64,000 nucleotides of DNA, taken from assembly GCA_963818475.1 (NCBI GenBank), contig CAWFSF010000002.1:160001-224000 (forward strand). Reading direction: 5' to 3'. Within the stretch, counting starts at the first letter, position 1; each line of letters begins with the position of its first letter. This DNA is from Nitrospirota bacterium (lineage in GTDB: Bacteria > Nitrospirota > UBA9217). Under the pieces are notes generated by a model that searched no databases, was not told where the DNA came from, and was given only the letters and a program-made list of their open reading frames with translations. The position numbers and the translations under genes were made by a program. This document shows, one piece after another, positions 6,871 to 36,201 of this stretch.

Positions 6871-7776
6871 CTATTCAGCGATCAAATAAACCTGGACGCG
6901 GTTATTATTACGGTCTGCCACAAGAAGTTCGCCCTTTTCATTGATACAGGCTTGCGCCGGATATCGCAGGAGCCCTTCTGCCCATCCCATGGCCAGCTGC
7001 CGCCCCTGGAACGAACCATCCTGACCGACGATGATAATGTCGCCTCCATTCTGGTCGATCAGATAGATGGTCCCTTTCTTGTCAGTCGTGATGTTCGTCG
7101 GGAAGTTAACGCTGTCTTTCAGGCTCGTTGTTAAGGGAGAAAATTTCTTTGAATCTTTTGATGCAGAATAGATAATAGATTCAACACTGTCGACCAATAA
7201 AACCGTTTCTTTAAAATCCACCGAAAGATCGGAGATAAACCCGTAGTGTTCCGGGAAAGCAATGGTTTTCAGAAATTTTCCTTCAGCATCCAGCACCACG
7301 ACATTCTTCGAGAAAATGTCCAGAATGTAGATAGTGCCATTACCGTCGATCTTAAAGCTCCGCGGGACAAGGGTCGTAGTACCAGGCAGCCCGGCCGGCT
7401 CCAGGTATCCCTGGAACTCTCCTGCAGGACTCAGGCGTACGATACGCCGTTGTTTTTCATCGAGGGCAAAGATATTTCCGCGGGCGCCGATCTGCACTCT
7501 CACCGGATACGTAAGCTGCGGCACCTTGATCTCCTGCAGGGCTTGCGCTGTTTTGCCCTGGAACGTGTAAAGCACGAGCCTGCCGTTCCCGGTGTCCGCG
7601 ACGACAAACAATGCGTCCTTGCTGCAAGCGACCCCTTCCGGCTGCTTGAGCTGCTTTTCCTGCACATCCCGATACACAGACACGATATGCCGCAATTTCA
7701 ACGCTGCAAAGCTGTGAGTGCTCAAAGCAGAGAGAACAAACAGCGTTGTCAGAACAATTCTTATGAACATTCTCAT
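6871..7776 (-). CDS. Exported NHL-repeat beta-propeller protein
   Basis: Signal peptide; repeats PEGVA..VADTGNGR and LLVADRNNNRVQVY. Confidence 0.85.
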   Translation of the reverse strand: MRMFIRIVLTTLFVLSALSTHSFAALKLRHIVSVYRDVQEKQLKQPEGVACSKDALFVVADTGNGRLVLYTFQGKTAQALQEIKVPQLTYPVRVQIGARGNIFALDEKQRRIVRLSPAGEFQGYLEPAGLPGTTTLVPRSFKIDGNGTIYILDIFSKNVVVLDAEGKFLKTIAFPEHYGFISDLSVDFKETVLLVDSVESIIYSASKDSKKFSPLTTSLKDSVNFPTNITTDKKGTIYLIDQNGGDIIIVGQDGSFQGRQLAMGWAEGLLRYPAQACINEKGELLVADRNNNRVQVYLIAE

Positions 7777-7783
7777 GCGTGCG

Positions 7784-9079
7784 TTACCTCTTCATCTCTT
7801 GGTGGCATTGGACGCAAAGGTCCGTACCGAATTGAAAATGCATCAGGCGTTTCTGGTCCGACCCGTGAGACTTGTGGCAGCTCAGGCAATCCAGGGTGAG
7901 GTTTTTATTCCTCGGATCTGTCGCCTTTTCTCCTATCGGGTGTGACGAATGGTGCGTAAAGTCATGGCAGGTGCTGCAGAGATCAATGATCTTCGCCTCC
8001 TTCATCAGGAGGACATTATCGGATGCATGGGGAGAATGGCAGGTCGTGCACATCCCTTCCTGTACAGGATTGTGCTTGGAAAGTGCCTTTTCCTGCCTTG
8101 TGATCGTGTCCTTGTGGCAACTGCCACAGAGGCTCGTCATCGAGTCCTGTTTCAGGAGGGCCGCCCGCTTTGAGGCATGAGGGCTATGACAGTTCAGGCA
8201 GCCCCGATGATCGATCAGGGGCCAATGAATCCGGTTTTTGGACAATGCGGCATTGACCATTTCATAGTGGCATCCGCGGCAGAGCTCAAAACCGGTCTTC
8301 TTGGTCTTGAATGGCGTCGATGATGTCGGGTCTTCATGACACTGATTGCACATCTTGTTGGCGACCGGAACGTGAACGGTGTCATAAAGAAGGGCGCTTC
8401 TCATGGAACCGTGGGGATTATGGCACGAAGTGCAGTTGGAATCAGCAACAGGATAATTCTGATGGACCTTCACAAAGAACGGCTTGTCGGTCTGATGGCA
8501 GTCCTTGCAGAGACCAGGAACGTCCTTCTTGAGAAGATGGAGCGCCGTGGCCGACCCATGGGGATTGTGGCAATTCAAACATCCCGAGGTCACCGGCTTA
8601 TGCTTGCGTTTCGCCTTATCGAGGGAGTCACCCAGTTCCTTGTGGCAATCCAGGCAGAGTTTGTTGCCGGAAAGCTTAAGATTGAACTTGTTGGCCGCTG
8701 CATGGGGATCATGGCATTTGACGCAATTGCCCTCTGTAACGACCTTGTGGCTGCTCTTCGCCTTATCAGGGATCACCGACGCATGGCACGTGCTGCATAT
8801 CGCGCCGGTATCGGTCGCAAGAAGTTTGCCGTGTGAAGACGTATGCGGGCTGTGGCATCCGATACATTCTCCCTGCCTGAGCGGAGTATGCACAAATGTG
8901 TTTTTCAGCTTTTCGGAGAACGTCGAGTGACAGCCGAGGCAGATTTTACCCTCTGCTCCAGGCTTCAGCCTGAACTTGTTCTGCGCATCTGAGCGGTCAA
9001 CGGCGATCGTGAGAAAACAGGTGCTGATCAGCACGGTCAAACAGATCCAGAATTTCATATATGACATTATCCTTTTCAT
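7784..9079 (-). CDS. 16-heme periplasmic cytochrome c (paired CXXCH repeats)
   Basis: 16 CXXCH motifs counted; signal peptide; ATGA overlap with the upstream gene at 9076-9079. Confidence 0.93.
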   Translation of the reverse strand: MKRIMSYMKFWICLTVLISTCFLTIAVDRSDAQNKFRLKPGAEGKICLGCHSTFSEKLKNTFVHTPLRQGECIGCHSPHTSSHGKLLATDTGAICSTCHASVIPDKAKSSHKVVTEGNCVKCHDPHAAANKFNLKLSGNKLCLDCHKELGDSLDKAKRKHKPVTSGCLNCHNPHGSATALHLLKKDVPGLCKDCHQTDKPFFVKVHQNYPVADSNCTSCHNPHGSMRSALLYDTVHVPVANKMCNQCHEDPTSSTPFKTKKTGFELCRGCHYEMVNAALSKNRIHWPLIDHRGCLNCHSPHASKRAALLKQDSMTSLCGSCHKDTITRQEKALSKHNPVQEGMCTTCHSPHASDNVLLMKEAKIIDLCSTCHDFTHHSSHPIGEKATDPRNKNLTLDCLSCHKSHGSDQKRLMHFQFGTDLCVQCHQEMKR

Positions 9080-11040
9080 TGCTTTTCCCCGATATGGCAT
9101 GCCTCACAGGACCGTGCCGCAAAGGGCGGGTGCATCACTTCCTTGAAGAATTTGGGGTCCTTGGACATATGGGGATCATGGCAACGCCTGCAATTCATCT
9201 GCTTCGCGTCGATCCCAATGTGGGCCTTCGCGAACGATGGACGGGTAAAATCGTGACAGTTGCCGCACAGATCCGGAACCGGCTGAGAGACCAGAGAAGC
9301 CTGGGGCGAGAAATGGGGCATATGGCACGTCAGACAGTTCCCTTCTACCGGAGAATGCACGTTTTCCTTTGCCATCCGTTCCTTCATGTCCTTATGGCAG
9401 GTCAGGCAGAGGTCCGGGCTCGATGCGAGCAGAAGGCTTTTCAACTTCGACTTGTGCGGGCTGTGGCACTTCGAGCACTCACCGTTCGTGACCGGGGTAT
9501 GCCTGCTCTTGCCGTCCTGGACGGCCTTCTTCAGGTCAGGGTGGCAGGTAAAGCAGATCTCCTCCTGTTTTTTCACGATCATCCCCTTGATATTGCTTCC
9601 ATGGGCATCGTGGCACGTGAGGCAATCGCCCCCGGTGAACGGTATATGGTTGGTCCCTCCAACTTCCTCTTTCATGAATTCTCCGTGGCACTGCTTGCAG
9701 AGATCGGAACCCGAGGCTTTCAGGATCCTCGGGATGTCGGAACCGTGGGGATTGTGGCATGCGTTGCACTGGGCATTTACCACCGGCTGATGGACATAGT
9801 TCCTTGCAAATCCAATTTCCGCGTCTGAATGACAGGAGTAGCAGACCTTGTCCATCCTGTCTTTCATCATATTCTGGAAATTCGAGCCGTGGGGATTATG
9901 ACAGGAGGAACACATCTCCGCGTCGAACGGCATATGGGCATTCTTGCTTTTCTTTGCGTCTTTCGTCTTTGCATGGCAGGAAAAACAAAGCTCGCCGTCC
10001 TTTGCCCGAAGCATTTTCTGGTTCTTGGCGGCATGGGGGGCATGGCAGGACAGGCAGCCGTTTCCGGTGGTAACTGCGGCATGGGAGACAGCGGTCTTTT
10101 CGCCCTTGTCGGGATGGCAGCTGAAACACAGCTTGTTGCCGGCATCGGCGAGAAGCTTCATGTTCTCCGAATCATGGGGGTTGTGGCAGGAAAGACACAT
10201 GCCGCCCTGGAAAGGCGCGTGCACGATCTCGCCGCCGGCCTTGAGCCCGGCCTGATCATGGCATTGATAACAAAGCTCCCCTCCGCTCAGGATGGTGCCG
10301 AACGGCTTATCGGATGTTGCGGGATTGTGGCACATGTTGCAGGCAGCGGAAACGAGAGGATTGTGAGCGCTTGTCTTGAGGAGCTTGGCCTGCGCTGAGG
10401 AGTGGGGATTATGACATTTTGTACAGGTCCTGTCCTTGACAGGATACCCGCCGTGCGCTTTTTTGAAAGAAGAATTCTCGCTGTCATGACACGTCATGCA
10501 CAGGGTGGCGGCTGGATTTCGCAGCAGATTGACTTCGTCTGAACCATGCGAAAAATGGCACCCTTTGCAGCCGTCGGTCTGAAGTGGCTTATGTACCACT
10601 TTCTTTTCGAACTGCTCCTTCGCGTGGCACTGATAACAAAGATCGCTCCCTTCGGATTTAAGCAGGTGATCCGACTGAGATGCGTGCGGGTTATGGCAGA
10701 GAGAACATTGCCCATTTTTCAGCGCTGTGTGAACATGAGCCTTGTCGGCCCCGATCTTCTCCTTGCTGTGACAGGCATAGCAGGTTTGATTCCCGATATC
10801 CTTCAGAATGAGCTTGGGGATGATGCCGTGGCGGAGATGGCAATCCTCGCATTTTTTTTCTTTGACGACAACGTGCACATTTTTCATCGAAAAATATTTT
10901 TGCTCGAATTTAGTATGGCAGTCTAAACACTCTTTCCGCTGAAACGTCTGCATTCTTATCTGCGGCTCGCATGCCATCAGAACGAGAGTTCCTGCCAGAA
11001 CAAGCAGCAGCGTCTGTATGAAATATTTTTTATTTTTCAT
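9076..11040 (-). CDS. 26-heme lipoprotein cytochrome c
   Basis: 26 CXXCH motifs counted with CxxCHxPHxS repeats; lipobox LMA-C after MKNKKY. Confidence 0.93.
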   Translation of the reverse strand: MKNKKYFIQTLLLVLAGTLVLMACEPQIRMQTFQRKECLDCHTKFEQKYFSMKNVHVVVKEKKCEDCHLRHGIIPKLILKDIGNQTCYACHSKEKIGADKAHVHTALKNGQCSLCHNPHASQSDHLLKSEGSDLCYQCHAKEQFEKKVVHKPLQTDGCKGCHFSHGSDEVNLLRNPAATLCMTCHDSENSSFKKAHGGYPVKDRTCTKCHNPHSSAQAKLLKTSAHNPLVSAACNMCHNPATSDKPFGTILSGGELCYQCHDQAGLKAGGEIVHAPFQGGMCLSCHNPHDSENMKLLADAGNKLCFSCHPDKGEKTAVSHAAVTTGNGCLSCHAPHAAKNQKMLRAKDGELCFSCHAKTKDAKKSKNAHMPFDAEMCSSCHNPHGSNFQNMMKDRMDKVCYSCHSDAEIGFARNYVHQPVVNAQCNACHNPHGSDIPRILKASGSDLCKQCHGEFMKEEVGGTNHIPFTGGDCLTCHDAHGSNIKGMIVKKQEEICFTCHPDLKKAVQDGKSRHTPVTNGECSKCHSPHKSKLKSLLLASSPDLCLTCHKDMKERMAKENVHSPVEGNCLTCHMPHFSPQASLVSQPVPDLCGNCHDFTRPSFAKAHIGIDAKQMNCRRCHDPHMSKDPKFFKEVMHPPFAARSCEACHIGEKQ

Positions 11041-11074
11041 GGGTAGTATCATAGTGAAGTATAGACTGTAATTG

Positions 11075-12775
11075 CTATATGTCAATCCCTTCTATATAGA
11101 CCCTGATATCCGCTCCTGCTCTGAGTTTATCGGCCCAACCCTCCACTCCCTGCTTAATGCGTTCATCGAACAATTGTTTCGCTATCGGAGCCCTGACCGA
11201 CACATAGTCCTGGGTCTGCGATGGGTATACGGCCACTACGGAGATAATGTAAAAATAGCCTTCAGGCCCTGCATAAAGCCTCGAATCTCCCGAACTCACA
11301 CCCGAAAGCGTTGTCTTGAGGTCGTCCGGCAATTCCGGGGTGGTGAAAACATTCCCCGCTAATTTCATAAGGTCTTCAGCATCCTTCTCGACCTGTCCCT
11401 GGGCATGTTCCTTTAACCAGGAAAGCTGGTCTCCGTTTTTGAGTTTCCGCAAAGCCGTTTCCGCACCGCTCCTCTTTTTAAAAGCAATGCTGTCCAGCCT
11501 CATCAGCTCGGATGTAGTATATTCCGCGAAATGCTGTGTGTAATATGCTTTAACTTCGGATTCCATTACGTTTATTTCCGGGAGAACGACCTTCTCAACG
11601 AACACACCGAAGACAACGGAGTTCTCATAATTCTTGACCACCTTTTGATACGAAGCAGCCTTCTTAATATCTTCGACAGCAGCCTCCTTCAAAAGCACTC
11701 TTTTTTCGAGCACCTCGTCAAGAACCATGTGTTTTTTCTCATTCAAGTTCGTTTTTCCGATCGCCCGGTCGATGCCATGAAAGTATTTCTGTCGCAACTC
11801 GTCAGTCAGATCAGACACTTTTACCGGGTCTTCCCCTGCTATTTCAGCGACGACACGCTCGTCTGTCATAAGTTTCTCGAACTTCTCCGGCGAAGACCCG
11901 TAATCAAGACCGTCGAAAACCTCTTTATTGATCTTTACATACTTATTTTTTAAGGACTCGATAAATTCCTGCCTTGCCACGCTCTTCTGCTGCTGCAGTG
12001 CTTCCGTTATTGCCGATTCTTTTTTCTCCGGGGATTCCTCGCGGCGGGCATCGTCCAGTTTTACGAGCGCAAACCCCGCAGGGATATTGATAATCTGGCT
12101 GACCGAGCCTGTCGTCATTGTCAAAAGCGCCTCGCTCAGCCCAGGGAGGATCTCGTCGTTTTTTAAATATCCTTCAGCCTTCCCTCCCTTTGCCTTCCCT
12201 GCGGCAATCGCCTTTTCTGCAAGCTCTTCAAAATTCTTGCCTGTTCTGAGTTCCGCCTCCATCTTCCGCGCGTCATCTTCCTTGGCAAACATGACCGATG
12301 CAAATTTCCATTCCATTATGTTCCTTTTGTAGAGTTTATCAACCATGGCATCATCAGGCTTTATACCCTTTTCATGCTCCTTGATCAGGGCTGTTCTGAG
12401 AGTCTCTCTGGAGTAGCCCTCTACCGATCCTTTGACTTCCGGCAGTTCGTTCAGCCCGATATTTTTTGCTTCCTGCAGAATAAGCCTCGTGTTAACCAAA
12501 CGCTTTACGAGGCCGGCATAATCCACCTTTCCCGGCGTCTTCCCCCCGGCCTTCTGCTCACCGGCTCTTTCCTCTTCAGACATGATGCTGAAGTGCATCG
12601 CTGAAATTTCCTGTTCATATTCTTCCCGGGAGATCGGCTCGCCATTGACGAGCGCCACAGCTTCTTTCCCTTCAAAAAGGGGAAGTTTCGCTGTTGATGT
12701 TGATACACACGCCGTTGTTCCCGTCATCAACACGGCCGCCAAAACAATGACCAAAAGTGCTGGGATTCGTCTCAT
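11075..12775 (-). CDS. SurA/PrsA-like peptidyl-prolyl isomerase chaperone (lipoprotein)
   Basis: VALVNGEPISREE N-domain, two parvulin-like regions (GKNFEELA), TAC lipobox; AAGGAG RBS before 12775. Confidence 0.8.
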   Translation of the reverse strand: MRRIPALLVIVLAAVLMTGTTACVSTSTAKLPLFEGKEAVALVNGEPISREEYEQEISAMHFSIMSEEERAGEQKAGGKTPGKVDYAGLVKRLVNTRLILQEAKNIGLNELPEVKGSVEGYSRETLRTALIKEHEKGIKPDDAMVDKLYKRNIMEWKFASVMFAKEDDARKMEAELRTGKNFEELAEKAIAAGKAKGGKAEGYLKNDEILPGLSEALLTMTTGSVSQIINIPAGFALVKLDDARREESPEKKESAITEALQQQKSVARQEFIESLKNKYVKINKEVFDGLDYGSSPEKFEKLMTDERVVAEIAGEDPVKVSDLTDELRQKYFHGIDRAIGKTNLNEKKHMVLDEVLEKRVLLKEAAVEDIKKAASYQKVVKNYENSVVFGVFVEKVVLPEINVMESEVKAYYTQHFAEYTTSELMRLDSIAFKKRSGAETALRKLKNGDQLSWLKEHAQGQVEKDAEDLMKLAGNVFTTPELPDDLKTTLSGVSSGDSRLYAGPEGYFYIISVVAVYPSQTQDYVSVRAPIAKQLFDERIKQGVEGWADKLRAGADIRVYIEGIDI

Positions 12776-12866: not shown

Positions 12867-12882
12867 AGCAATTAATGTACCA
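12867..12882 (-). promoter_or_regulatory. Sigma54 (-24/-12) promoter
   Basis: TGGTAC-ATTAA-TTGCT on the minus strand ~90 bp upstream of the PPIase-cytochrome genes. Confidence 0.75.
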
Positions 12883-13074: not shown

Positions 13075-16000
13075 TTATTTCTGTTTAGCCATTTTTTCAA
13101 CGGCACGTGCCATTTCAGCCGCCAGTGCATGGGCGGTATTGATGCGGCCCCAGTCAAACAAGTAAACAGCATCATCTCCTTCATTGCGACTGCTGGATGA
13201 CCATACCACCTCACGAGTATTCCTGTTGATAAGCAGCAGAGAAAACCCAACCTTTGGCTTGCCAAAAACCCCAGTATGGTCTTGATAATCCAGAACTTTT
13301 CCGCTAAGAATAAGATCAGCTTTCAGTTCGTCTGCAATAAGATCGGCATCAGTGAGGGATATCCCGTCGTACATAATTATCCTGTAATCGAGTAATTTTT
13401 CTTTTATAAGGCCGGGTTCAATGACGCTGAAATGTTTTCCGTTAAAAAGCTCCCGCAAAAAATGCTGCGCCATGATCTCTCCTGCATATTTTCTGTCAGT
13501 GCTATTCGTAAAAGGCATTATTGCAATTCGACGCGGAGCATCATCGTCAATCACCGTAACGGTATGCGACCCGACCTCCCCCGGGGTCGCGTTCACCGAA
13601 GTTCCCAGGGTCGCCACGATCGTCTTATTGTCCTCTTGCAGCGTATTGTTCATGAGGACACTACTGACGCCGGCCGTGGTCGCGCCTGCCTTGATGGTCA
13701 CGGGGTTCGGGGTCATGACCCGGTAGTGCTTCCCGTCAACAGCGGTCCCGCTCACGGTAAAGGGCACGACCACGTCCTTGCCCGATGCGCTGGAGAGCTG
13801 CATGGTCACGGTTGCCGACCCGCCGTTCTCCTGCACGTCCTGTCCCGCCGAGGTGAAGGTGATCGCGGGCGCGGGGTCGTTGTCGATGATCGTACAGGTA
13901 TGGACCGTCTGTTTGCCCAGGACGGCGTTGACGGGGTTTATGAGCGTCGCTTCGATGGTCTCACTGTCTTCGTGGAGGTTGTCGTCGATGATCCCGAGGT
14001 CGATGCTCTTGGCAGTCTCACCGGGCTCGAAAGCGAGGGTGGTGGTTTTCAGGGTATGGTCCCTGCCGGTCTCTGCCGTGCCGCCGGTGACGGCGTATTC
14101 CACGGTCGCTGGTTTGCCGCTGGCCGCGCTTAATGATACTTCGATCTTCGCAGGGCTCTTTCCTTCAGCTTCCTGGGAGCCCTGCAGCATAAAGGAGACA
14201 AGGGGCGCCGGGTCGTTGTCCGTGACGGTTACGGTATGGACCGGGCGTTCGCCCAAAGCTGCATTTTCCGGTTTCCCCAGGGCCACGACGGTCGTCTTGC
14301 TGTCTTCGTAGAGGTTGTTGTCCAGCAGGGCAAGGGTGATGCCGGCCGTGGTCGCGCCTGCCTTGATGGTCACGGGGTTCGGGGTCATGACCCGGTAGTG
14401 CTTCCCGTCAACAGCGGTCCCGCTCACGGTAAAGGGCACGATCACGTCCTTGCCCGATGCGCTGGAGAGCTGCATGGTCACGGTTGCCGACCCGCCGTTC
14501 TCCTGCACGTCCTGTCCCGCCGAGGTGAAGGTGATCGCGGGCGCGGGGTCGTTGTCGATGATCGTATAGGTATGGACCGTCTGTTTGCCCAGGACGGCGT
14601 TGACGGGGTTTATGAGCGTCGCTTCGATGGTCTCGCTGTCTTCGTGGAGGTTGTCGTCGATGATCCCGAGGTCGATGCTCTTGGCAGTCTCACCGGGCTC
14701 GAAAGCGAGGGTGGTGGTTTTCAGGGTATGGTCCCTGCCGGTCTCTGCCGTGCCGCCGGTGACGGCGTATTCCACGGTCGCTGGTTTGCCGCTGGCCGCG
14801 CTTAATGATACTTCGATCTTCGCAGGGCCCTTTCCTTCAGCTTCCTGGGAGCCCTGCAGCACGAAGGAGACAAGGGGCGCCGGGTCGTTGTCCGTGACGG
14901 TTACGGTATGGACCGGGCGTTCGCCTAAAGCTGCATTTTCCGGCGTCCCCAGGGCCACGACGGTCGTCTTGCTGTCTTCGTAGAGGTTGTTGTCCAGCAG
15001 GGCAAGGGTGATGCCGGCCGTGGTCGCGCCTGCCTTGATGGTCACGGGGTTCGGGGTCATGACCCGGTAGTGCTTCCCGTCAACAGCGGTCCCGCTCACG
15101 GTAAAGGGCACGACCACGTCCTTGCCCGATGCGCTGGAGAGCTGCATGGTCACGGTTGCCGACCCGCCGTTCTCCTGCACGTCCTGTCCTGCCGAGGTGA
15201 AGGTGATCGTGGGCGCGGGGTCGTTGTCGATGATCGTACAGGTATGGACCGTCTGTTTGCCCAGGACGGCGTTGACGGGGTTTACGAGCGTCGCTTCGAT
15301 GGTCTCACTGTCTTCGTGGAGGTTGTCGTCGATGATCCCGAGGTCGATGCTCTTGGCAGTCTCACCGGGCTCGAAAGCGAGGGTGGTGGTTTTCAGGGTA
15401 TGGTCCCTGCCGGTCTCTGCCGTGCCGCCGGTGACGGCGTATTCCACGGTCGCTGGTTTGCCGCTGGCCGCGCTTAATGATACTTCGATCTTCGCAGGGC
15501 TCTTTCCTTCAGCTTCCTGGGAGCCCTGCAGCACGAAGGAGACAAGGGGCGCCGGGTCGTTGTCCGTGACGGTTACGGTATGGACCGGGCGTTCGCCCAA
15601 AGCTGCATTTTCCGGTTTCCCCAGGGTCACGACCGCTGTTTCTGTGTTCTCGGAGAGATGATCGTCCTTCGGCTTGATAATGATCGTTCCGCTTGTTTCG
15701 CCTGCCTTGATGAAGAGCGGGGCCGGCGTGATGCTGTAATCGGCACCTTCTTGCGCGGTCCCGCTCACGGTAAAGGGCACGACCACGTCCTTGCCCGATG
15801 CGCTGGAGAGCTGCATGGTCACTGTTGCCGACCCGCCGTTCTCCTGCACGTCCTGTCCCGCCGAGGTGAAGGTGATCGCGGGCGCGGGGTCGTTGTCGAT
15901 GATCGTATAGGTATGGACCGTCTGTTTGCCCAGGACGGCGTTGACGGGGTTCGAGAGCGTCACCTCGATGGTTTTGTTATCATTATATTTCCTGTCGTCG

Positions 16001-21315: not shown

Positions 21316-21894
21316 TCAAAAAAGCTCATTGACCAGCTCTATGACAGCCTCCCGCGTGACATCGTTCATCGGCCGTCCCCCGCCGCCCAGGAGACGGTCC
21401 CCGGCGGTTATGCCGCCCCGCGTGGAAGATGCGGTCCATACCACCCTGCCCGTCTGGGCCTCGATCATCTGAAGACTGAGGGAGATGACATTGGAAGACG
21501 TCGTCCCTGACCGGACCTCTCCATATTCCCTGAGCACGCCCGTGATAACGGCATCGGCCTTGACAATGCCCCCCAGTTTGGTGATCTCTTCCGCAGAGGG
21601 TACGGTCGCTTTCTCGATCCCTGCCCGTGTAATGCCTCGCGCAACCTCTCCAGCAGGGAGCACGTAGATGGCGCCTGTCGACAGAAGCATGTTCATGAAG
21701 ACGTCCCTTACCCTGTTTGCAGCCTGATTGTCTTTCGTGAGGTTCTCAAAAGGCATTACCGCAACGGTCCGCACCGACCCGAGGTCGAAATTCGGGTCAT
21801 GGTAAACCGAGCGTTTGGAGGAGGCAGCACAGGCCGGCAGGGAAATCAGAACAAGTGAAAGCAGGACCGTTATGAGATTTTTAATCACGTTCAT
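21316..21894 (-). CDS. GNA1162/CsgG-like lipoprotein
   Basis: Lipobox LPA-C, VAVMPFENLT, ADAVITG, MIEAQTGRVVW. Confidence 0.8.
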   Translation of the reverse strand: MNVIKNLITVLLSLVLISLPACAASSKRSVYHDPNFDLGSVRTVAVMPFENLTKDNQAANRVRDVFMNMLLSTGAIYVLPAGEVARGITRAGIEKATVPSAEEITKLGGIVKADAVITGVLREYGEVRSGTTSSNVISLSLQMIEAQTGRVVWTASSTRGGITAGDRLLGGGGRPMNDVTREAVIELVNELF

Positions 21895-25595: not shown

Positions 25596-25934
25596 TGGAT
25601 TCCTTGCCCCACGGTTCACTTTCGTATCCGCTCCATCCTTCTCAGTGCGTGGATTCGATGAGTAGTATTAACAAGTCCCTCGCCTGCGTGCATTACAAAC
25701 CGTATTAATAGCGATGCGGGTCGTGGCCCCGCACCGCGTTTTTTTCTCTGTAATCTCCCTGTCCGGCTGTTGAATGTTCTTTTCGAACAACCAAAACAGT
25801 GTATCATGCTCCCCGCTGTTTTTATTATTTGTTCGTAGCAATCGTTCAGTCCTCTGCATGAAAAGAACTTTATCGATGAATCCTATACCTGGTCTGAGGC
25901 AAATGGTAGATGAAACGCGCTGTAAATTCAAGAG

Positions 25935-27259: not shown

Positions 27260-27337
27260 CTCCGGCAGACCAGCCATCCCGTTTCCGGGATCTGTGACTT
27301 TGTGCCCCCACCTTGCGGTGAGTTTACCCGTTCGGAG
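27260..27337 (-). ncRNA. GEMM-I (c-di-GMP-I class) riboswitch in the omcS leader
   Basis: CUCCGAACGGGUAAACUCACC-GCAA-GGUGGGGGCACAAAGUCACAGAUCCCG-GAAA-CGGGAUGGCUGGUCUGCCGGAG: GNRA-capped P2, GYAAAC/CAAAG junctions, P3, P1 CUCC/GGAG. Confidence 0.8.
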
Positions 27338-27366
27338 GATCGATTGTTGCCGGCAATGCCGACAGA

Positions 27367-27435
27367 TTTTACTTCTTCTTTCTTACTTCTTACTTCCTAC
27401 TTCTTACTTCTTACTTCCAGCTTCTTACTTCTTAC
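27367..27435. repeat. Heptamer tandem repeat (TTCTTAC)n, ~9-10 imperfect copies
   Basis: Direct reading of the sequence. Confidence 0.9.
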
Positions 27436-27518: not shown

Positions 27519-28460
27519 TCAGTCGTAGGCAATCCGAAAGACGCTGACGCCGCGTCTTCTTGCCTGGTTTACAAAGACCTTGTCATTGAGGACCGCCAGC
27601 CGTTGTGGAGCAGTCAGGTTGTCCCTGGCTTCTCCACGCGAGCCGAACTGCATCTGGAATTTGAATTCCTTGTCGTAAACCATGACAACGCTTTTCAAGG
27701 TGTCTACCACATAGATGAATCCCCTGTCATCGGATGCGATATCTGCCACAATATTGAACTTCCCTGCCACGTTGCCCGCACTGCCGAAGGATTGCACCTG
27801 GTGGTCGCGGGACATTCTGAAGGCCGTAAAGAGCGTTGGGACCGTGAAAAGCATGTTCCCCTCCCTGTCCACGCTGAAGCCGACGATATTGTTCTCCGAA
27901 CCCGTCTTTTCTTCCTTTGCCAGGTAAGCTCCGACATCATAGCCGTCCACAAAAGAACCCGTTGAATCAATGACAACGATCTTCCTTGTATAAAGGTCGG
28001 CAAGATAGAGATATCCCTTCCAAGAGACCAACCGTCGCGGTAAGATCTTCGAAAACTCCTGCGGAAGACCCCTCAGCTCCAGCGCCTCCTTCAATTCTCC
28101 CCGAAAATTGCAGCGCAAAATTGAATAGCTGTCCCCGTTGTGGGAGAGCACCATGATTTTCCCGTCCTGCTCAACAGCGACATCGACAATTGTGCCAAGG
28201 GCGCTGTCGTCGCCGAAATGGTAGATTTCCATCCCAACGTTATTAAATATACTGACGATCCCATCGTTGATGACAAGCACCTCGCTATGCTCTCTGTCGC
28301 TGGACAACCCTGTCCAGCTGTAGGGTATGGCGCCGTTAAAGTCGGAAAGGGTGTAGAGATAGGAAGCCTTGATGTCTGCCGTAGCGATCGTTGAGCAGAG
28401 CAACAGCGAGAGTGCTGTTGCGGTTGCGAGGGATGGCAGGTTTAAATGAAGGTATTTCAT
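27519..28460 (-). CDS. Exported NHL-like beta-propeller protein upstream of omcS
   Basis: Signal peptide; IASDDRGFIYVVD and QFGSRGE repeats. Confidence 0.8.
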   Translation of the reverse strand: MKYLHLNLPSLATATALSLLLCSTIATADIKASYLYTLSDFNGAIPYSWTGLSSDREHSEVLVINDGIVSIFNNVGMEIYHFGDDSALGTIVDVAVEQDGKIMVLSHNGDSYSILRCNFRGELKEALELRGLPQEFSKILPRRLVSWKGYLYLADLYTRKIVVIDSTGSFVDGYDVGAYLAKEEKTGSENNIVGFSVDREGNMLFTVPTLFTAFRMSRDHQVQSFGSAGNVAGKFNIVADIASDDRGFIYVVDTLKSVVMVYDKEFKFQMQFGSRGEARDNLTAPQRLAVLNDKVFVNQARRRGVSVFRIAYD

Positions 28461-28524: not shown

Positions 28525-28540
28525 TGCAATGCCTGTGCCA
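28525..28540 (-). promoter_or_regulatory. Sigma54 promoter for the NHL-omcS transcript
   Basis: Consensus TGGCAC-AGGCA-TTGCA on the minus strand, ~65 bp upstream of the ATG at 28460. Confidence 0.85.
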
Positions 28541-28905
28541 TGAGATTCCGGTGACATACCGACTTGAAAAAACAAGGTTTGCACAATTGTCAAAAAAAAT
28601 ATCAAACATGCATCCGGGAAAATCCCCATTTATGGCTGGCAATTTAACGGAAAACGTTCACCCCTTTGACTGAGAGTTACATAAAATTGCGGCACGCCGC
28701 CAGCAGCCGCGAAGGGTCGGCTGAAGGAGCATCATCAAAGGGCGATGTTTCCTGAGCAAACGGTCGCTGTCGGGTCTTTTTGCAGTTGTGTTTTTCCGGA
28801 GAGGGGAACAAGAGATGCAAGAGAGAATGTGAAGTTAAGAAAGAGGGACCCGAGGTTGCGGGCAGAGATCGACGATGATGACGTTTGATGACGGACTGTC
28901 GTTTG

Positions 28906-30761
28906 TTACCGGGATTTTTTCTTCAGGCGCATGGCCTCATCGAGGCTCAGACGGGCCTCTGCAAAGTCCGGTTTCAGCCGCAGGGCTTCGGTAAAATGCA
29001 GGATGCTTTCATCGACGTTTCCGCGCCGTAATACCGCAACTCCCAACCCGTAGTGTCCCTTTGCAGAGCCTGGCTCAATCCGCAAGGCTTCGGAAAAATG
29101 CCTGATGCTTTCATCAAGTTTACCCTGCGAACCCAGGGTAACACCCATGATAAAGTGTATCTCCGCATGGTCGGGCTCGTTCGGAGTCCCTCGGTATAAT
29201 GATACAGCGCTTCCCCATCCCTACCTTGCTTCATGAGCGCAAAGCCCATGTTAAAATGCGCCTCTGCGGAGCCGGGTTTGACGAGCAGCGCTTTGTTTGT
29301 GTACGAAATGGCCTCTGCAATCTTTCCCTGTTTGATCAGGACATTGCCCATTCCCGTAAGTGCGCGCTCATATTCGGGCGAGATCCGCAAAGCTTCGGCA
29401 TACCGGGGAATCGCTTCTTCCAGCCTGCCTTTCTGAGCAAGAGCATACCCAAGGCTTTCATGAGCAATATAATTGTCACCTACTGCCTCGGCAGCATGAC
29501 GGAAAAGGGTGATGCTGTCTTTCCAATAGCCTACTTGCTGCCAGGTGACCGCCGCGGAAGCCAGAAGAAGAATACCTGCCGCGGCGGACAGGACGATATG
29601 GCGATTGCGGTTGCCGCCTGCCCAGATCCCCACGCCCCATGCCAGCATGATAAAGATCCCGATGAGCGGCAGGTAGGTATAACGGTCCGCCATTGCCTGA
29701 CTCCCGACCTGCACCAGACCGATGACCGGCACGAGCGTCACGAGATACCACAGCCAGCCGACCAGAAAATAGGGATGCCGTTTTGCCGAGCGGACCACCA
29801 GCACCGATATCCCCACCAGGAGTAGACCGGCAAACAGCACCTGTGCTGTTGTCAGGGTGGGTGGGAGTGGGTATATTACGGCGAGGTTGACCGGCCAGGC
29901 CGTCTTGGCCAGGTAAAGAACGTAAGCCCACAGCGCGTTGGCGGAACGGAAAGCAATTGGCACCGCCTTCAGGGAAGAGACCGCCCCGCCCTGGTGTTGC
30001 GCATAGAGGGTTACCATGCTGGAAGCCGCGGCAAGAGCAACGAAGGGGGCCTTTTCCCACAAAAGGCGCCCAAGGAGCGGTTTGCGTGCGGCCGGATCAG
30101 GGTCTTGCCGCATCAGCAGGCCTGCCTGCCCGAACTGAAACCGCCCAAGAGGCCAATAATCCATCAATAGGAGAACGACCGGCACGGTAACCAGCATGGG
30201 CTTGGACATGAGTCCGAGTGCGAATGCGCACAGTACCAACAGGTATCTCGTGAACACCGGGCGTTTGACATACCAGGCATATGACAACAGGGTGAGCATC
30301 CAGAAAAAAGCGCTCAGGACGTCTTTGCGCTCCGCTGCCCATGCGACAGACTCCACGTGAAGGGGATGGAGCGCAAACAGGGCTGCGACAAATGCGCTTT
30401 GCCAGTATGCCCCGGTCATCCGTACCAGCAGCAGGAAGAGGAGGACGGTGTTGATCACATGGAAGAGGACATTCACCAGATGGTGAGGCCCCGGATCGAA
30501 TCCGAACAATTGGATATCCAGCATATGTGACAGCCACGTCAACGGATGCCAGTTTGATGCGTAGGCAGAGGTGAACGCCCAGATGAAACCTTTTCCGGTC
30601 AGGCCTGTTCTTACGTGGTGATTTTCCAGGAGGTACTCGCCGTCGTCAAAATTCACAAATTGATTATTGCCTGCCTGCCAGTACACGGCACAGGTAACGG
30701 CAGCCAGGAACAGGCACATCAAAGTTTTACTCTTCAGAGTCACTGTTAAGCCTCGCCGCAA
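28906..30761 (-). CDS. TMTC-like GT-C membrane glycosyltransferase with C-terminal TPRs (frameshift near 29174)
   Basis: FVNFDD, NWHPLTWLS, LHPLHVESVAW, ADRYTYLP; TPRs continue in ORF 28906..29148. Confidence 0.85.
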
Positions 30762-31059: not shown

Positions 31060-31075
31060 TGGTACGTTTATTGCT
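31060..31075 (+). promoter_or_regulatory. Sigma54 promoter for the PilZ genes
   Basis: TGGTAC-GTTTA-TTGCT. Confidence 0.75.
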
Positions 31076-31093
31076 TTCTACGGATGAAGGAGC

Positions 31094-31570
31094 ATGGAAT
31101 GGGCAGCCTTTTTTGACTGTTTGCAGCGAACAGGTGTCTCAGGTGACCCTATGGAAAAGATCATAGCGCCGGTCAAAACAGCAGCCGATCGGGTCATGAC
31201 ACATGGCAGCCTGAACTGCTGTGAGAGGCGTGAACCGCCGAATGATCAGGATACGGGCATGCAATGGACCGGTGGTAACGTCCGAAAACATATGCGAATG
31301 CCGGCCGACGAGCGCATTGCCTATCTGGCGATCCCTTCGCCTCATGAAATATGTGCGGAAGTGGTCACCGGCCATGTTTTCGATATCAGCGATGACGGAT
31401 TAGGCCTCCTGACCGAATGTCCTCTCGCACCCGGCAGCGTCATCAGGTTTGTGAGCGGTGCGGTGTGGTATACCGGCATCGTTCGATGGAGCGCAGGCAC
31501 CGGGGACGACGAGCACCGTGCAGGGATCCAATTCATCCTATCAGAGAACGCTTCTGATGATAGGCTCTGA
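31094..31570 (+). CDS. PilZ domain protein (start uncertain)
   Basis: RKHMR (RxxxR), DISDDG (DxSxxG), GIVRW..RAGIQF. Confidence 0.8.
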   Translation: MEWAAFFDCLQRTGVSGDPMEKIIAPVKTAADRVMTHGSLNCCERREPPNDQDTGMQWTGGNVRKHMRMPADERIAYLAIPSPHEICAEVVTGHVFDISDDGLGLLTECPLAPGSVIRFVSGAVWYTGIVRWSAGTGDDEHRAGIQFILSENASDDRL

Positions 31571-31738
31571 CGCGCGACACGGCAACGGGTATCCATGTGC
31601 CGCTGAAGCGCTGTGCAGCCGGCAAAGGGCCTGGTCGGGCATGGGTTCCCGGCAATGCATCCTGGCGAGCGGAAGACCGTACTGCTCGGAAGAAGCTGCT
31701 CGAACCAACGCCAATCGCTCTGATCACGGAGGACACGA

Positions 31739-32470
31739 ATGAAGAAGGCCTTACTGGTTGTCGATGACGAAAAACTGATACGCTATGCGATGTCCGCCAT
31801 GCTCGGGAGTGAGGACCGGGAGATCGTGTGCGCAGCCACGGGAACGGAAGCACTGCAGGAGCTCGCGGCGCGGTCCTTCGATCTCTGTTTTTTAGATCTC
31901 CATCTGCCCGATATGAGCGGGATCGACATCATGCATGCGGTTGCGAAGACTGCTGCGGGAACAAAGATCGTCATCATGACCGGCGCCGAAGTCGACGAGG
32001 GCACTATGGCGGATATTCGCCGGAACTCCGCATTATTCCTCACCAAGCCCTTTGATCTTGATCGGGTCAAAATGATTATGGAGCAGCTCCTGGTCAGCGA
32101 TAACACCTCATACCGGGACTATGAGTCGTTCGTTCCCGGCCCTGCAGGCGAACGGAAGCGCTTTGAGCGAAGGCGCGTGGACCGCATCGTGATCACCGGT
32201 GCGGCCGTCAGCATCACGGCAGCCTCCCGGACGCGGCTCAGCGCCGATGTCATGGACATCAGCGAAGCAGGTACGCAGGTCCGCACCGATGTTTTCCTCG
32301 AACCCGGCACCAGGGTCCGCGTTGAGGATGGCGCCACCCGGTACAGTGGCATCATCCGGTGGACCGGGAAGGTGGACGATTCAGGCGGCTGCTGTGCCGG
32401 CATTGAGTTCCTGCACGAAACCGGCGGAGGAGACGGCCGCCCCTACTCGAGGCCGAACTTCTTCGTCTGA
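31739..32470 (+). CDS. Response regulator with REC and PilZ domains
   Basis: LVVDDE, FLDLHLPDMSG, TKPFD; then ERKRFERRR and DISEAG. Confidence 0.88.
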   Translation: MKKALLVVDDEKLIRYAMSAMLGSEDREIVCAATGTEALQELAARSFDLCFLDLHLPDMSGIDIMHAVAKTAAGTKIVIMTGAEVDEGTMADIRRNSALFLTKPFDLDRVKMIMEQLLVSDNTSYRDYESFVPGPAGERKRFERRRVDRIVITGAAVSITAASRTRLSADVMDISEAGTQVRTDVFLEPGTRVRVEDGATRYSGIIRWTGKVDDSGGCCAGIEFLHETGGGDGRPYSRPNFFV

Positions 32471-33828
32471 TACCGCAGCGCGTCGTAGCTGATGCCAAGC
32501 AGTTTAGCCGCCTGCGCCTTGTTATGACTCGTGCGAGCGAGCGCCTGGCTGATCAGGTCGCGCTCCACATCGTCGATGCGCACGCCGCACGCCGGCAGCG
32601 CGAACCGCTCGGGGCTTGCTTCGGCCACGGTCGGCCGCGGCCGCATCAACCATTCCGGCAGATGTCCCGGCATTATCTCCTCTTCGCTCTCAAGGACCAC
32701 CAGCCGCTCTACGAGATTTTTGAGCTCCCGGACGTTGCCGGGCCAACCGTAGGAGGCCAGGCTCCGTTCCGCCTCGGGAGAAAAGCGCTTCACTGTTTTC
32801 TTGTTGTACCTTTTACCTAAGCTTTGGAGAAAATTGCGGGCAATGACCGGGATGTCTTCGGCGCGCTCTCGAAGCGGCGGCACGTGCATGTAGAACGTGT
32901 TGAGCCTGAAGAACAGGTCCGTTCGGAATTCGCCCGATGCGACGGCATCGGCAAGGTTCCGGTTCGTCGTGGAGATCACCGTGACATCGACGGGAATTTC
33001 CCTGCTGCCGCCGACAGGCCGAATGGTCCGCTCCTCGAGCACCCGCAGCAGTTTGCCCTGCAGACTCTGCTTCATGTCGCCGATTTCGTCAAGGAGAATC
33101 GTGCCGTTGTGGGCAAGCTCGAAGAGCCCCTTCTTGTCGGTTTTGGCATCGGTGAAAGAGCCCTTTTCGTGCCCGAAGAGCTCGCTCTCGAGCAGTGTTT
33201 CCGGCAGGGCAGCGCAGTTCACCCTGATGAACGGCGCCAGGCCGGGCCCCACATCCCGGTGCATCAAACGGTGGGCATACCGTGCAAAAAGCTCCTTGCC
33301 GGTCCCGCTCTCGCCGGTGATCAGGATGGTCGACACCGATGCATCGGCCAGTTTTTCGATCTTTTTTTTCAGCTCCTGCACGATCCTGGACCCGCCGAGG
33401 ATCTCCCGGTCAAAGAGTTCGGCGTGGACCTTCCTGAGATACACGACCTCCTGCCGCAGCCTCCCCTTCTCGATGATGTTGCGAATGACGATCTTGACCT
33501 CGTCGATATTGAACGGCTTCGTAAGGTAATCGACGGCGCCGATCTTCATGGCCTTTACCGCGGTTTCCGCGGAATCGTCGGCCGTGAGCATCACCACCTG
33601 CGTTTCAAGCTGCTGCTGCATGATGTCCGTGAGGACCTCGATCCCGCTCCGCACGGGAAGCGTGATATCCAGGAGCACCACGTCCGGCGCCCAGGCCCTG
33701 ATTCTGCCCATCACGTCATCGGCGCCTGATGCCGCGCGCACCTCGTACCCCTCCTCCTTCAGCACCCGGGTGAGCATGATGGTGATAAGTTCGTCGTCAT
33801 CGATCAGAAATATTTTTGACTGGGCCAT
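32443..33828 (-). CDS. Sigma54-dependent NtrC-family response regulator
   Basis: REC domain, GESGTGKE, GSFTDA, LDEIGD, WPGNVRE, Fis-type HTH. Confidence 0.95.
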   Translation of the reverse strand: MAQSKIFLIDDDELITIMLTRVLKEEGYEVRAASGADDVMGRIRAWAPDVVLLDITLPVRSGIEVLTDIMQQQLETQVVMLTADDSAETAVKAMKIGAVDYLTKPFNIDEVKIVIRNIIEKGRLRQEVVYLRKVHAELFDREILGGSRIVQELKKKIEKLADASVSTILITGESGTGKELFARYAHRLMHRDVGPGLAPFIRVNCAALPETLLESELFGHEKGSFTDAKTDKKGLFELAHNGTILLDEIGDMKQSLQGKLLRVLEERTIRPVGGSREIPVDVTVISTTNRNLADAVASGEFRTDLFFRLNTFYMHVPPLRERAEDIPVIARNFLQSLGKRYNKKTVKRFSPEAERSLASYGWPGNVRELKNLVERLVVLESEEEIMPGHLPEWLMRPRPTVAEASPERFALPACGVRIDDVERDLISQALARTSHNKAQAAKLLGISYDALRYQTKKFGLE

Positions 33829-35287
33829 GGGCAAGCACCTCTTTCGGTTCCCTGACGGGAAGCGTAATGAAGAACGAAACTCCGTTGTCGTGGTTATTTT
33901 CAACGCTGATCGTCCCGTTATGCTGTTCGATCAGCTTTTTCGTAATGGCAAGCCCCAGCCCCGTGCCATGCGGTTTGGTCGTAAAGAAGGGCTGGAATAT
34001 CTTGGCGACCACGGCTTCGTCGATCCCGCTGCCCGTGTCGATTATCCAGATCCGGAGGGGTTCACCCGGCCCCGGATCAGCCGTCCGGACGGTGACGGTC
34101 CCGCTGGCGGGCATGGCCTCGGCTGCGTTCAGGAGGAGGTTCATGAACACCTGCTGGAGCTGGAGCGGATCCGCCATGAGCGGCCGCACGTTGGGGGCCA
34201 GCTCGCGCACCACGGTGATGGAATGTCCGTTCTGCGGTGCATACAGCGGGTGTCGCTCGGCGAGGCTGATGGTGGAAGCGATCACGTCGTTCACATCCAC
34301 GGACGAAAAGACCGGTTTCGGCGGCCGCGCGAAATTGAGCATGCTTTTAAGCAGCTGCTCGATACGTTTGGTCTGCTCTACGCCCCTCTTGAGCACGTCA
34401 CGGTTCTCTGCCGTCAGCGACGGATCGCCGGCCAGCACTTCCATCGATGCCTTGATGCCTGCCAGCGGGTTCTTGATCTCGTGGGCCAGCCCGCCCGCCA
34501 TCTCCCCGAGCACCACGAGTTGCTCCGCCCACTGCATGCGAAGACAGTCCTCCCGCAGCGAGTGCGCCATATCGTTGAACGAGGCTGCAACCTCGCCGAA
34601 CTCATCCTGCAGGTGGCCGATCCGATAGCTCAGGTCGCCGTTCTTCAGCTTTCTTGTGGCGGTCAGCAGTTCCTGGACCGGCCTGGTGAATCCCCGGATG
34701 AAAATGGTGGACAGCACGATGGCCGCAAAAGGAACGGCCATGGCAAGGAGGTACAGCATCATCTTGGTGCGCGCTATATCCTGGAATGCCTCCTTCGTCT
34801 GGCTTTCCAGCTTGCTGTTCGCCAGGGTGGTGATGTTTTCAACCTCGGAGATAAGGTCCGTACCAACCCGAAAGGCCCGGTCCTCTTCAGTACGCATCCG
34901 CGCGGCATTCGCCCGCAGCGTGAGCGCCCTGCTCAGTACATTTTTATAATCCTCGACCTGTTTTTTCAGGCCGGTGAGCCTGGCCGTCACCTGTTCATGG
35001 TGATGACAGTCAAAGCACGTCGTGATGCTGCCGCTCATGGTCCGCACATGTTTCACGATCGTATCCATGCTGCGCGCATAAGGGGTGTTCTTCACGTACA
35101 GGTCGGACTGCGCCTGCTTGACCTGTATAAGCAGGTGCTCGCGAAGGATCCCGACCTGGTGGAGCCTGACCAGGCTGTCCATTTCCCTCGTGGCCTGTTC
35201 GATCGTCACGACGGTATAGATGGCGCTCGCGATGAACAGGAGGGAAAAGATGCTCAGTCCTATGATGATTTTCCTTTTCATTGTCAT
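33797..35287 (-). CDS. Sensor histidine kinase with a periplasmic c-heme motif and HAMP domain
   Basis: Two TM helices flank CFDCHH; HAMP (DEFGEVA); AHEIKNPL; GTGLGL. Confidence 0.92.
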   Translation of the reverse strand: MTMKRKIIIGLSIFSLLFIASAIYTVVTIEQATREMDSLVRLHQVGILREHLLIQVKQAQSDLYVKNTPYARSMDTIVKHVRTMSGSITTCFDCHHHEQVTARLTGLKKQVEDYKNVLSRALTLRANAARMRTEEDRAFRVGTDLISEVENITTLANSKLESQTKEAFQDIARTKMMLYLLAMAVPFAAIVLSTIFIRGFTRPVQELLTATRKLKNGDLSYRIGHLQDEFGEVAASFNDMAHSLREDCLRMQWAEQLVVLGEMAGGLAHEIKNPLAGIKASMEVLAGDPSLTAENRDVLKRGVEQTKRIEQLLKSMLNFARPPKPVFSSVDVNDVIASTISLAERHPLYAPQNGHSITVVRELAPNVRPLMADPLQLQQVFMNLLLNAAEAMPASGTVTVRTADPGPGEPLRIWIIDTGSGIDEAVVAKIFQPFFTTKPHGTGLGLAITKKLIEQHNGTISVENNHDNGVSFFITLPVREPKEVLAHGPVKNISDR

Positions 35288-36201
35288 TCATTCATATAAT
35301 GGTAAGTGGCAATATCCAGGCCGGCCTCCCGGGCATACCGGTAGACCGGAGCGTAATCAGCGTTCGTCGTCTCAATGAACTTTTGGGCGCCGAATACGCG
35401 CAATACCGCGCGTCCTTCCGGGTCATGATGCATATTCAGGAGCGCCTCCGTAAGGGCCTTCTTCACGTCATCACCGACGTCCTTCTTCAGGGCAAGTCCG
35501 TTCTCGGGGAACTCCGGCGATCGCTCCAGCACCACGAGGTCGCTCCTGATCGCATTGTTGCCGGCCGCCATACGCTCATAGACCGTGTTTTTCGCGGCCC
35601 CGATATCGGCCCGCCGGTTCAGGACGTCGTTGATCGCATCTTCATGGGTGCCGCTGAAATAGGTCTCCCTGAGATGGGTCCTGAAATCGAGCCCGTGTTT
35701 TTTGAAATAGGCGAGCGGGAGCAGATACCCCGCGGTCGTTGCTTTATCCACAAAGGTGAAGCGTTTTCCCTTCATCTGCCGCACTGACGAGATACCGCTG
35801 TCCCGTCTCGCAAAAATAAGGCCGTAGTAGGTCGACATGCCGTTCAGGTCCACCGGACGGCCGATGACCTCTACACCGAGTTTTTCGTGAGCGAGCGGGT
35901 ATGTAAAGCTGCCGAAGAAGGCGCCGTCGAGGTTTTCGGCGACGAAATTATCGATGATATTGCCGTACCGGGGGAGGATTTTCAGGTTGACGGAAATGCC
36001 GATTTTTTTGGAGAGGTAATTACCAAGCGGCTCGTATCGCTCGATCTGGCGGAACAGGTTGTGCTCGGGAAGGAGGCCGATCTGCATCGTACGTCCCCGT
36101 GCTTCTCCCAAAGGAGGCGCTGTCTCCTGCTTGCTGCACCCCGCCGGGGCCGATAGTACCAGGCAGAGTGCGATTGCTGCATAATGTCGTATATTCTTCA
36201 T
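35284..36201 (-). CDS. PhnD-like substrate-binding lipoprotein coupled to the kinase
   Basis: PAG-C lipobox, FVDKATTAGYLLP, FSGTHE; ATGA overlap with the kinase; no ABC permease adjacent. Confidence 0.85.
   Translation of the reverse strand: MKNIRHYAAIALCLVLSAPAGCSKQETAPPLGEARGRTMQIGLLPEHNLFRQIERYEPLGNYLSKKIGISVNLKILPRYGNIIDNFVAENLDGAFFGSFTYPLAHEKLGVEVIGRPVDLNGMSTYYGLIFARRDSGISSVRQMKGKRFTFVDKATTAGYLLPLAYFKKHGLDFRTHLRETYFSGTHEDAINDVLNRRADIGAAKNTVYERMAAGNNAIRSDLVVLERSPEFPENGLALKKDVGDDVKKALTEALLNMHHDPEGRAVLRVFGAQKFIETTNADYAPVYRYAREAGLDIATYHYMNE

Follow-up and report, generated by a model that had tools for sequence, protein, structure and literature searches.

The osc operon that accompanies omcS, the gene for a hexaheme cytochrome, has been published as widespread, with roles proposed for the Osc proteins (Shen et al., 2025, as summarised in PMC13194489). 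OmcS genes are reported in metagenome-assembled genomes of Thermodesulfovibrionia (PMC8478452) and OmcS homologues in diverse bacteria (PMC10954620), and accounts of the passage of OmcS wires through the outer membrane, and of their anchoring there, are still speculative by the description in PMC12307469. Here we analyze a 64,000-nucleotide stretch from a Nitrospirota bacterium (assembly GCA_963818475.1, contig CAWFSF010000002.1, positions 160,001 to 224,000 of the forward strand), called the window below, which holds a 30-kb block of this type. In our judgment the block probably encodes an osc-type machine that builds an OmcS-type hexaheme filament under sigma54 and cyclic di-GMP (c-di-GMP) control, with a predicted arm of Calx-beta repeats on its OscG protein, whose gene is probably intact bar an assembly error. 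An osc-type locus or a single omcS is in itself neither new nor surprising, and the Calx-expanded OscG is a variant on an already known system. The distinctive feature of the locus is this predicted arm, which was overlooked in the initial annotation, a reading of the letters and open reading frames (ORFs) only.

Read on the minus strand from 36201 to 6871, the block encodes a PhnD-like protein, a heme kinase, a sigma54 activator, a GT-C/TPR protein, an NHL propeller, OmcS, a YVTN propeller and a probable barrel, and continues with two lipoprotein genes, a peptidyl-prolyl isomerase (PPIase), cytochromes with 26 and 16 hemes, and another NHL propeller. Downstream of omcS the order oscD-E-F-G-H-I-J-K is kept as in the loci used as synteny references, two of the Geobacteraceae family and those of Geomonas; differences from Geobacter sulfurreducens were taken from papers, and osc letters other than C, I and J were assigned by gene order and described role. 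The companion set around omcS that had been recognized in the initial annotation is thus confirmed, while the novelty it had seen in a single omcS, a retained His16 and an osc locus is not. A genome scan found at least 67 osc-type loci, in Nitrospirota, Acidobacteriota, Rokubacteria, Deferrimicrobiota, Geobacteraceae and others, and among the matches listed most share the gene order. Of 40 loci, 28 hold a single omcS in the interval from the oscA-like to the oscD-like gene, nine hold two, two hold three and one holds none, so that the single copy, being the majority layout, was dropped as a distinguishing mark.

The OscG lipoprotein and its predicted Calx-beta arm

The oscG gene occupies 13075-20950 on the minus strand as two ORFs (17414-20950 and 13075-17454), an assignment drawn from Pfam, repeat comparison and PelC profile matches. 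Together they encode a lipobox (LAGC), a PelC-like domain, 20 Calx-beta repeats, 19 of them whole and one split at the frame break, and a second PelC-like domain. The repeats match Calx-beta in Pfam (PF03160, E 1e-103 to 1e-130) and the calcium-binding domains of NCX (E 3e-16), most carry the DD/DN..E and terminal D-x-D acidic motifs, and they are predicted to form a calcium-stiffened arm. The array contains 672-base duplications, with up to 95% identity over 2.5 kb. An AlphaFold2 model of the two-repeat OscG of a relative (G078) has four folded domains (pLDDT, the predicted local distance difference test, 83.5; pTM, the predicted template modelling score, 0.64), and a fold search with this model returned Calx-beta and GNA1162 matches; the Atlas gave no usable match for the Calx ORF.

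An oscG match occurs in 20 of 63 family relatives of the host, and 12 of these 20 have a Calx insert. Six genes are intact from N- to C-terminal domain, with 2, 4, 4, 5, 8 and 14 repeats (the longest of 1962 amino acids, aa); four are frameshifted (7, 20 and about 25 repeats, and one fragmented), one genome having both an intact and a broken copy; and three run off the end of the available DNA. The intact forms in six relatives rule out an assembly artefact of one genome as the source of the array. The remaining eight relatives have no Calx insert, two of them carrying N-terminal MBG repeats instead. The insert was not found outside the host's family, in a 401-genome sample of the phylum and the named loci. 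In that sample OscG was matched strongly by 8 proteins outside the family, encoded by frames 356-416 aa long, and weakly by 27 (270-531 aa), and the linker measures 6-94 residues in all 33 named loci with both OscG domains in one frame. Three named loci with a Calx insert belong by RecA to the host's family and may overlap the family genomes already counted.

When 8000 candidates were scored, at least 21 long OscG homologues emerged, four with Calx-beta, 14 with PKD-type and three with MBG repeats, and OscG therefore appears to have gained Ig-like arms of three kinds. The kinds fall on separate branches of a tree of the OscG N-domain, at a resolution too poor to fix the number of origins, a single Calx origin included. 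Long N-terminal MBG arrays are seen in the homologues at L127:10361-15112 (G036), a form that seems to lack a lipobox, and L132:5790-9107 (G079); N-terminal PKD/Big-type repeats are seen at L024:7533-10229, L026:15833-17965 and P0003-P0018, one of them from a Desulfobacteria record. We found no paper joining Calx-beta to the OmcS/osc system, nor one that describes the PelC-like fold of these lipoproteins, and the supplements of the primary osc paper may show long OscG forms or Nitrospirota clusters.

The frame break in oscG, near 17430, consists of one extra base by comparison with six sister repeats. A second break, near 29180, interrupts the GT-C (PMT_2)/TPR gene (28903-30761, minus strand; Pfam), whose TPRs go on in another frame to about 28903. 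Since dsrA, a GGDEF gene, the GT-C/TPR gene and one copy each of EF-Tu (99.7% identical to its intact counterpart) and AtpD are also split in this assembly, an indel error is the likelier origin of the oscG break. Public contigs from 4 of 11 listed sequencing runs contained no sequence across the break, and none of the runs, all with shares under 0.2, was of RNA. Were both breaks real, the array could be neutral slippage in a locus that is decaying, as it has been lost in a congener. We think this quite improbable: it would account for two broken genes within the block, for the recent duplications at up to 95% identity, and for the absence of any omcS or oscG match from all five same-genus genomes (65-92% complete), but it sits poorly with the housekeeping genes broken likewise in this assembly, with intact OscG forms of up to 1962 aa, with acidic motifs kept in the repeats and with the open frames of the other osc genes. 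At four loci (L135, L061, L072 and L078) three to five GT-C/TPR genes stand in a row beside omcS, which suggests glycosylation of wire or arm proteins.

In the closest congener, G004, about 150 bases separate the two flanking genes of the block, at an empty site (window 36523-37689 and 5670-6584; G004:C35). Because the flanks adjoin there, the 30-kb block is gained or lost as a unit, and because the deacetylase flank adjoins the cluster in G022 and is found close by in G036, loss in G004 is favoured. At the DNA level the two flanks are 78-83% identical to a same-genus genome, which rules out a foreign contig.

The neighbours of oscG bear on where the arm may sit. The OscF-like protein (21316-21894, minus strand) has a single PelC-like domain (PelC 9H80, E 2e-4; GNA1162, E 8e-4), and OscF and both end domains of OscG, which are homologous to each other (97.5%), match PelC/GNA1162 weakly but consistently (E 1e-5 to 1e-3). 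No CsgG match was found for these domains in Pfam, or in the PDB at E up to 1. The two lipoproteins of the initial annotation are therefore retained as lipoproteins, and their membership in CsgG is ruled out. The OscE-like product (21952-24189, minus strand) is a probable outer-membrane beta-barrel, and here too the earlier call is upheld in part. The OMP_b-brl Pfam domain in two of nine homologues, the C-terminal Phe and a lead from the Atlas speak for a barrel, albeit weakly; seven of the nine aligned homologues carry F5_F8_type_C_2 (discoidin), and the window protein has neither domain. Its single-sequence fold was uninformative (pLDDT 31.7), its strand periodicity was not separated from shuffles (27 vs 23.6 +/- 3.2), and searches for PDB and PelB matches returned none.

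By analogy to PelBC (PMC12141448), OscE would be the barrel and OscF/OscG the ring. OmcS may be exported or anchored through this barrel and ring and polymerise by His16 bridging, with the Calx array looping out between the two ring domains of OscG as a spacer of variable length. The PelC analogy points to the periplasm: the ring is reported as periplasmic, under the PelB barrel, in PMC12141448, OscF and both OscG end domains match PelC, and an insert between two ring domains would remain on the ring's side. The arm would then hang from the ring and scaffold, or space out, OmcS subunits or the 26/16-heme wires, which we consider possible but doubtful. Within one family the repeat count varies between 0 and about 25, so the arm would be no fixed ruler, and the MBG or PKD repeats added in other lineages are of kinds usual in surface proteins. 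Twenty Calx-beta domains would measure about 80-90 nm end to end, beyond the usual periplasm, which also counts against a periplasmic arm.

Variable length and three surface-type repeat kinds point outside instead, and we give somewhat less than even odds to an array on the outer face that would serve beside the wire as collar, tether or adhesin. More tentatively, the OscF/OscG ring itself may form a collar on the cell surface, at the foot of the OmcS wire, onto which Ig-like arms (Calx-beta, MBG or PKD; up to about 25 domains) were grafted repeatedly. Such arms, tunable in length and stiffened by calcium, would act as a stand-off or adhesin and attach the nanowire to minerals or to partner cells. 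If the collar reading is true, the natural length series (0, 2, 4, 5, 8, 14 and 20 repeats) is a ready-made tag with which to locate the nanowire anchor. The tolerance of OscG for an insert of 2,200 residues between the two domains limits the topologies open to this protein and offers a large natural marker for cryo-electron tomography or protease mapping.

OmcS and its companion proteins

The omcS gene (25992-27239, minus strand) encodes a hexaheme cytochrome with six CxxCH motifs and the mature start FHSGGVAECMGCHNIH. An assembly search found one omcS match in 4.66 Mb (91% complete), in agreement with the earlier statement that no omcT-like paralogue lies adjacent. Its sole PDB match is G. 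sulfurreducens OmcS (6EF8/6NEF, E 2e-106), and the mature N-terminus and His16 are aligned, so the initial annotation was right to call a hexaheme OmcS that keeps this residue. We take His16 to be the inter-subunit heme ligand, donated by the neighbouring subunit. In sequence alignment H2, H16, H96, H133, H239 and H316 are all present, in line with the need of the OmcS structure for six distal His ligands (PMC6584659). Across 96 distinct intact homologues, second copies included, five non-motif histidines are invariant (96/96) and His16 is found in 85. Retention of His16 across the family, second copies included, means that this residue does not show filament formation, and we dropped it as a distinguishing mark.

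The position after oscA, with the riboswitch, fits the identification as omcS (GSU2504 in G. sulfurreducens). Between omcS and oscD lie 396 nt. In a tree the window protein falls among Thermodesulfovibrionia-type OmcS (up to 83% over the mature chain), with the G. sulfurreducens paralogues outside the set. Unlike omcS, other genes are closest to those of the family member G092, whose two nearest omcS copies (65-67% identity) were outside the tree; an exchange of the subunit gene between lineages is for this reason only a possibility.

Around omcS, all on the minus strand, lie the companions that the initial annotation had listed, and domain matches agree with it on the PPIase, three propellers, GT-C/TPR gene, heme kinase and sigma54 activator. 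The NHL-type propeller at 27519-28460, in the position of GSU2505 and hence presumably oscA-like, was placed by gene order and an NCBIfam model matched below its cut-off, with no Pfam match. Domain matches identify the OscD-like YVTN propeller lipoprotein (24195-25619), the OscH-like SurA/PpiC chaperone lipoprotein (11075-12775), which would be the PPIase that matures and holds OmcS, and the NHL propeller that ends the block (6871-7776), probably at the GSU2493 position, whose flanking genes are adjacent in G004. The paired-CxxCH cytochromes, OscI-like with a lipobox (9076-11085) and OscJ-like (7784-9100), have the 26 and 16 CxxCH motifs previously counted, besides domain matches, and could pass electrons across the periplasm. 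In an Acidobacteriota locus (L042:15597-18611) a 1,004-aa membrane protein between oscF and oscG recalls GSU2502 and resembles, by eye, a fused transporter/spermidine synthase.

Several points weigh against a filament-building machine with an outer arm. His16 is family-wide, as the counts above make plain, and PMC12954529 reports three further close homologues of OmcS in G. sulfurreducens, in addition to the protein identified in the filament map, which were not the filament seen. One study found OmcS dispensable for Fe(III) oxide reduction, and the OmcS-filament route of extracellular electron transfer is described as disputed in G. sulfurreducens (PMC11077965); filaments are also reported in Shewanella given omcS alone (10.1101/2023.10.26.564108). 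The periplasmic PelC rings of PMC12141448 run contrary to an outer-face arm, the OscE barrel is not borne out by strand periodicity or PDB matches, and the breaks in oscG and the GT-C gene may be real.

Some of these points would suit a locus that displays an OmcS-like cytochrome at the surface as monomers or short polymers, long conductive filaments not being its physiological role. We judge this unlikely, since the locus retains every motif for filament formation together with a complete assembly set, and omcS has its own predicted translational switch, as would be expected for a high-copy subunit. In its favour, omcS mutants of G. sulfurreducens are reported to still reduce Fe(III) oxide (PMC11077965), wire anchoring and secretion are still speculative by the description in PMC12307469, and the genome offers other conduits in OmcA/MtrC-like proteins and a 48-heme protein. 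The latter, of 2,789 aa with 48 CxxCH (L194:5054-13420, G000:C6), has as neighbours an NHL protein and a gene in which MFS and spermidine synthase are fused.

Regulation and host

Sequence features before oscA and omcS suggest control at two levels, and the riboswitch, the sigma54 site and the PilZ and REC-PilZ genes were all missed in the initial annotation, where the PhnD-like gene also went unnamed. The PhnD-like periplasmic binding protein (35284-36201, minus strand; Phosphonate-bd E 7e-63) overlaps the kinase start by 4 nt and precedes the same kinase at other loci, among them L028, L037, L039 and L041, and it is likely the kinase's sensor partner. The HAMP kinase (33797-35287, minus strand; Pfam and motif) has one CxxCH in its N-terminal sensor region, kept in all nine homologues that cover the site, and is followed by a REC-sigma54 activator of NtrC type with no PAS match (32443-33825, minus strand; Pfam). 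On the plus strand are genes for a REC-PilZ protein (31739-32470; Response_reg E 1e-20, PilZ E 9e-4, below cut-off), found at the same place in L028, L039 and L133, and for a PilZ-domain protein (31094-31570; PilZ E 5e-6), at which lies a one-mismatch sigma54-like site (31060-31074).

The window's sole exact sigma54 -24/-12 consensus (28526-28540, minus strand) lies 66 nt upstream of the oscA-like gene. The motif precedes oscA-like genes in 22 of 47 loci, compared with 1/41, 0/63, 0/38 and 0/28 for four other osc genes; the loci include kin and these counts are hence not independent. Another one-mismatch site (12868-12882), before the OscH-like gene, recurs upstream of 1 of 41 homologues. Position and conservation alone count here, as the one-mismatch pattern is not enriched across the window (8 vs 4.4 +/- 2.1), and sigma70 and terminator scans of the window stayed at chance level. 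The PhnD-like protein and the heme kinase may signal to the sigma54 activator and so open the promoter before oscA-omcS.

A c-di-GMP-I (GEMM-I) riboswitch (27261-27338, minus strand; RF01051, 55.3 bits vs a cut-off of 35) ends 21 nt before omcS. Such a switch stands directly before omcS in 11/17 and 6/16 loci in two scans, three matches not adjoining omcS being excluded. A 7-nt stretch complementary to the omcS ribosome site overlaps the 5' strand of the switch and is paired with that site in the minimum-energy fold; a complement of at least 6 nt occurs in 15 of 19 omcS riboswitches. From this complementarity we predict a translational ON switch, in which c-di-GMP binding would close the P1 stem and free the ribosome site. 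Between the oscA-like gene and the riboswitch, at 27369-27435, lies a 7-nt tandem repeat of 9.6 copies.

Ligand choice in GEMM-I is stated in PMC6140456 to follow the base equivalent to G20. At the selecting position the window has G, and the 19 omcS riboswitches have 11 G, 7 A and 1 C. Guided by the Rfam structure line, we take the equivalent of Vc2 G20 to be the base three before AAAC. No Hypr (Ser348) GGDEF was found, with neither Ser nor Thr at the site in the recognisable GGDEF proteins of the 91% complete genome. The G, this negative result and the PilZ and REC-PilZ genes in the block make c-di-GMP the likely ligand, and the first two, within the 91% of the genome covered, lead us to reject GEMM-Ib control by cyclic GMP-AMP (cGAMP). 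The riboswitch of the G. sulfurreducens omcST operon, also GEMM-I, is reported to sense both nucleotides (PMC6456294, PMC8835794). An A-type (cGAMP-like) base is seen in omcS riboswitches of the Nitrospirota loci L005, L002, L007 and L027:11448, and ligand choice may vary within the family. The host genome has eight riboswitches of the c-di-GMP-I family (L185-L192, G000), three with A three bases before AAAC.

With four records titled Nitrospirota or Nitrospirae the host's RecA shares 83-92% identity, and with Geobacter/Geomonas 73-75%; in a RecA tree those four records nest in the host's family. In the same tree, whose deep branches are poorly resolved, genomes of the same phylum are intermixed with Thermodesulfovibrionia and Dissulfurispiraceae records. 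By this marker the host is a member of Nitrospirota, which upholds the suspicion of the initial annotation that it may not be a Geobacter, and a Geobacteraceae host is ruled out. Its relatives step from family straight to phylum, as would fit a one-family class such as UBA9217. The assembly (4.66 Mb, 91% complete, 6.2% contaminated) has 68 ORFs with at least three CxxCH, NapA-, NrfA-, CODH- and OmcA/MtrC-like genes, several of them split or below cut-off, and a dsrA that is frame-broken and in pieces. The frame-broken dsrA, an anaerobic CODH and the NapA-like and NrfA-like genes (L193, G000:C6; L210, G000:C2) suggest an anaerobe with sulfur and nitrate metabolism. Elsewhere in the window, 461-4757 holds a gene for ATP synthase subunit a near the window start, a region low in GC, and an AtpD copy at the end (about 59900-64000) with a second AtpD just outside indicates two ATP synthase sets. 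The stretch at 43700-47500 (GC 39-41%), with a DUF4365 protein and ORFs of no assigned function, may be a mobile or defence island.

The locus adds a likely electroactive, dsr-bearing Nitrospirota family, with oscG in 20 of 63 relatives. Its single subunit gene, its clean boundaries, a defined promoter and a predicted translational switch also make it an uncomplicated candidate for assembling nanowires in a heterologous host.

Comparison with described systems

The closest described counterpart is the omcS/osc cluster of G. sulfurreducens (about GSU2493-GSU2508), with which the window shares the OmcS hexaheme, propeller, probable barrel, two lipoproteins, PPIase, 26- and 16-heme cytochromes and NHL gene, and upstream an NHL gene, kinase and sigma54 regulator. 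Unlike that cluster, the window locus has no omcT, oscC (GSU2501) or spermidine-synthase-like GSU2502, has PhnD-like, PilZ and REC-PilZ genes in its block, and belongs to a Nitrospirota host. With a single omcS in 28 of 40 loci, the fuller G. sulfurreducens set is no requirement of the wider family. Its kinase carries a heme motif in 496 aa, whereas GSU2507 is described as a 621-aa Cache kinase, and its activator is without the PAS domain described for GSU2506 (both PMC10599522, PMC11077965). As in Geobacteraceae-family loci, a GEMM-I switch scoring above the RF01051 gathering threshold stands directly before omcS; it differs from the cGAMP subclass GEMM-Ib in having G, not A, although 7 of the 19 omcS switches have A, some of them in the host's family.

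OscF and OscG resemble the PelBC complex for exopolysaccharide export, in which a PelC dodecamer sits on the PelB barrel (PDB 9H80, 5T0Z/5T10/5T11), in having PelC-like domains beside a probable barrel gene. Unlike in PelBC, there are three such domains spread over two genes, the cargo would be protein and not polysaccharide, one gene has a large repeat insert and the barrel has no PelB match. Where osc-type OscG has a linker of 6-94 residues, the window's has 20 Calx-beta repeats. In their 112-residue length, in acidic motifs that align to NCX CBD1/2 and in a copy number that varies by tandem duplication, these repeats are like the NCX/integrin beta4 Calx-beta arrays of large repeat adhesins. 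Unlike in those adhesins, the window's array sits inside a lipoprotein of the nanowire machinery, between two PelC-like domains, with no adhesion tip or RTX export signal seen.

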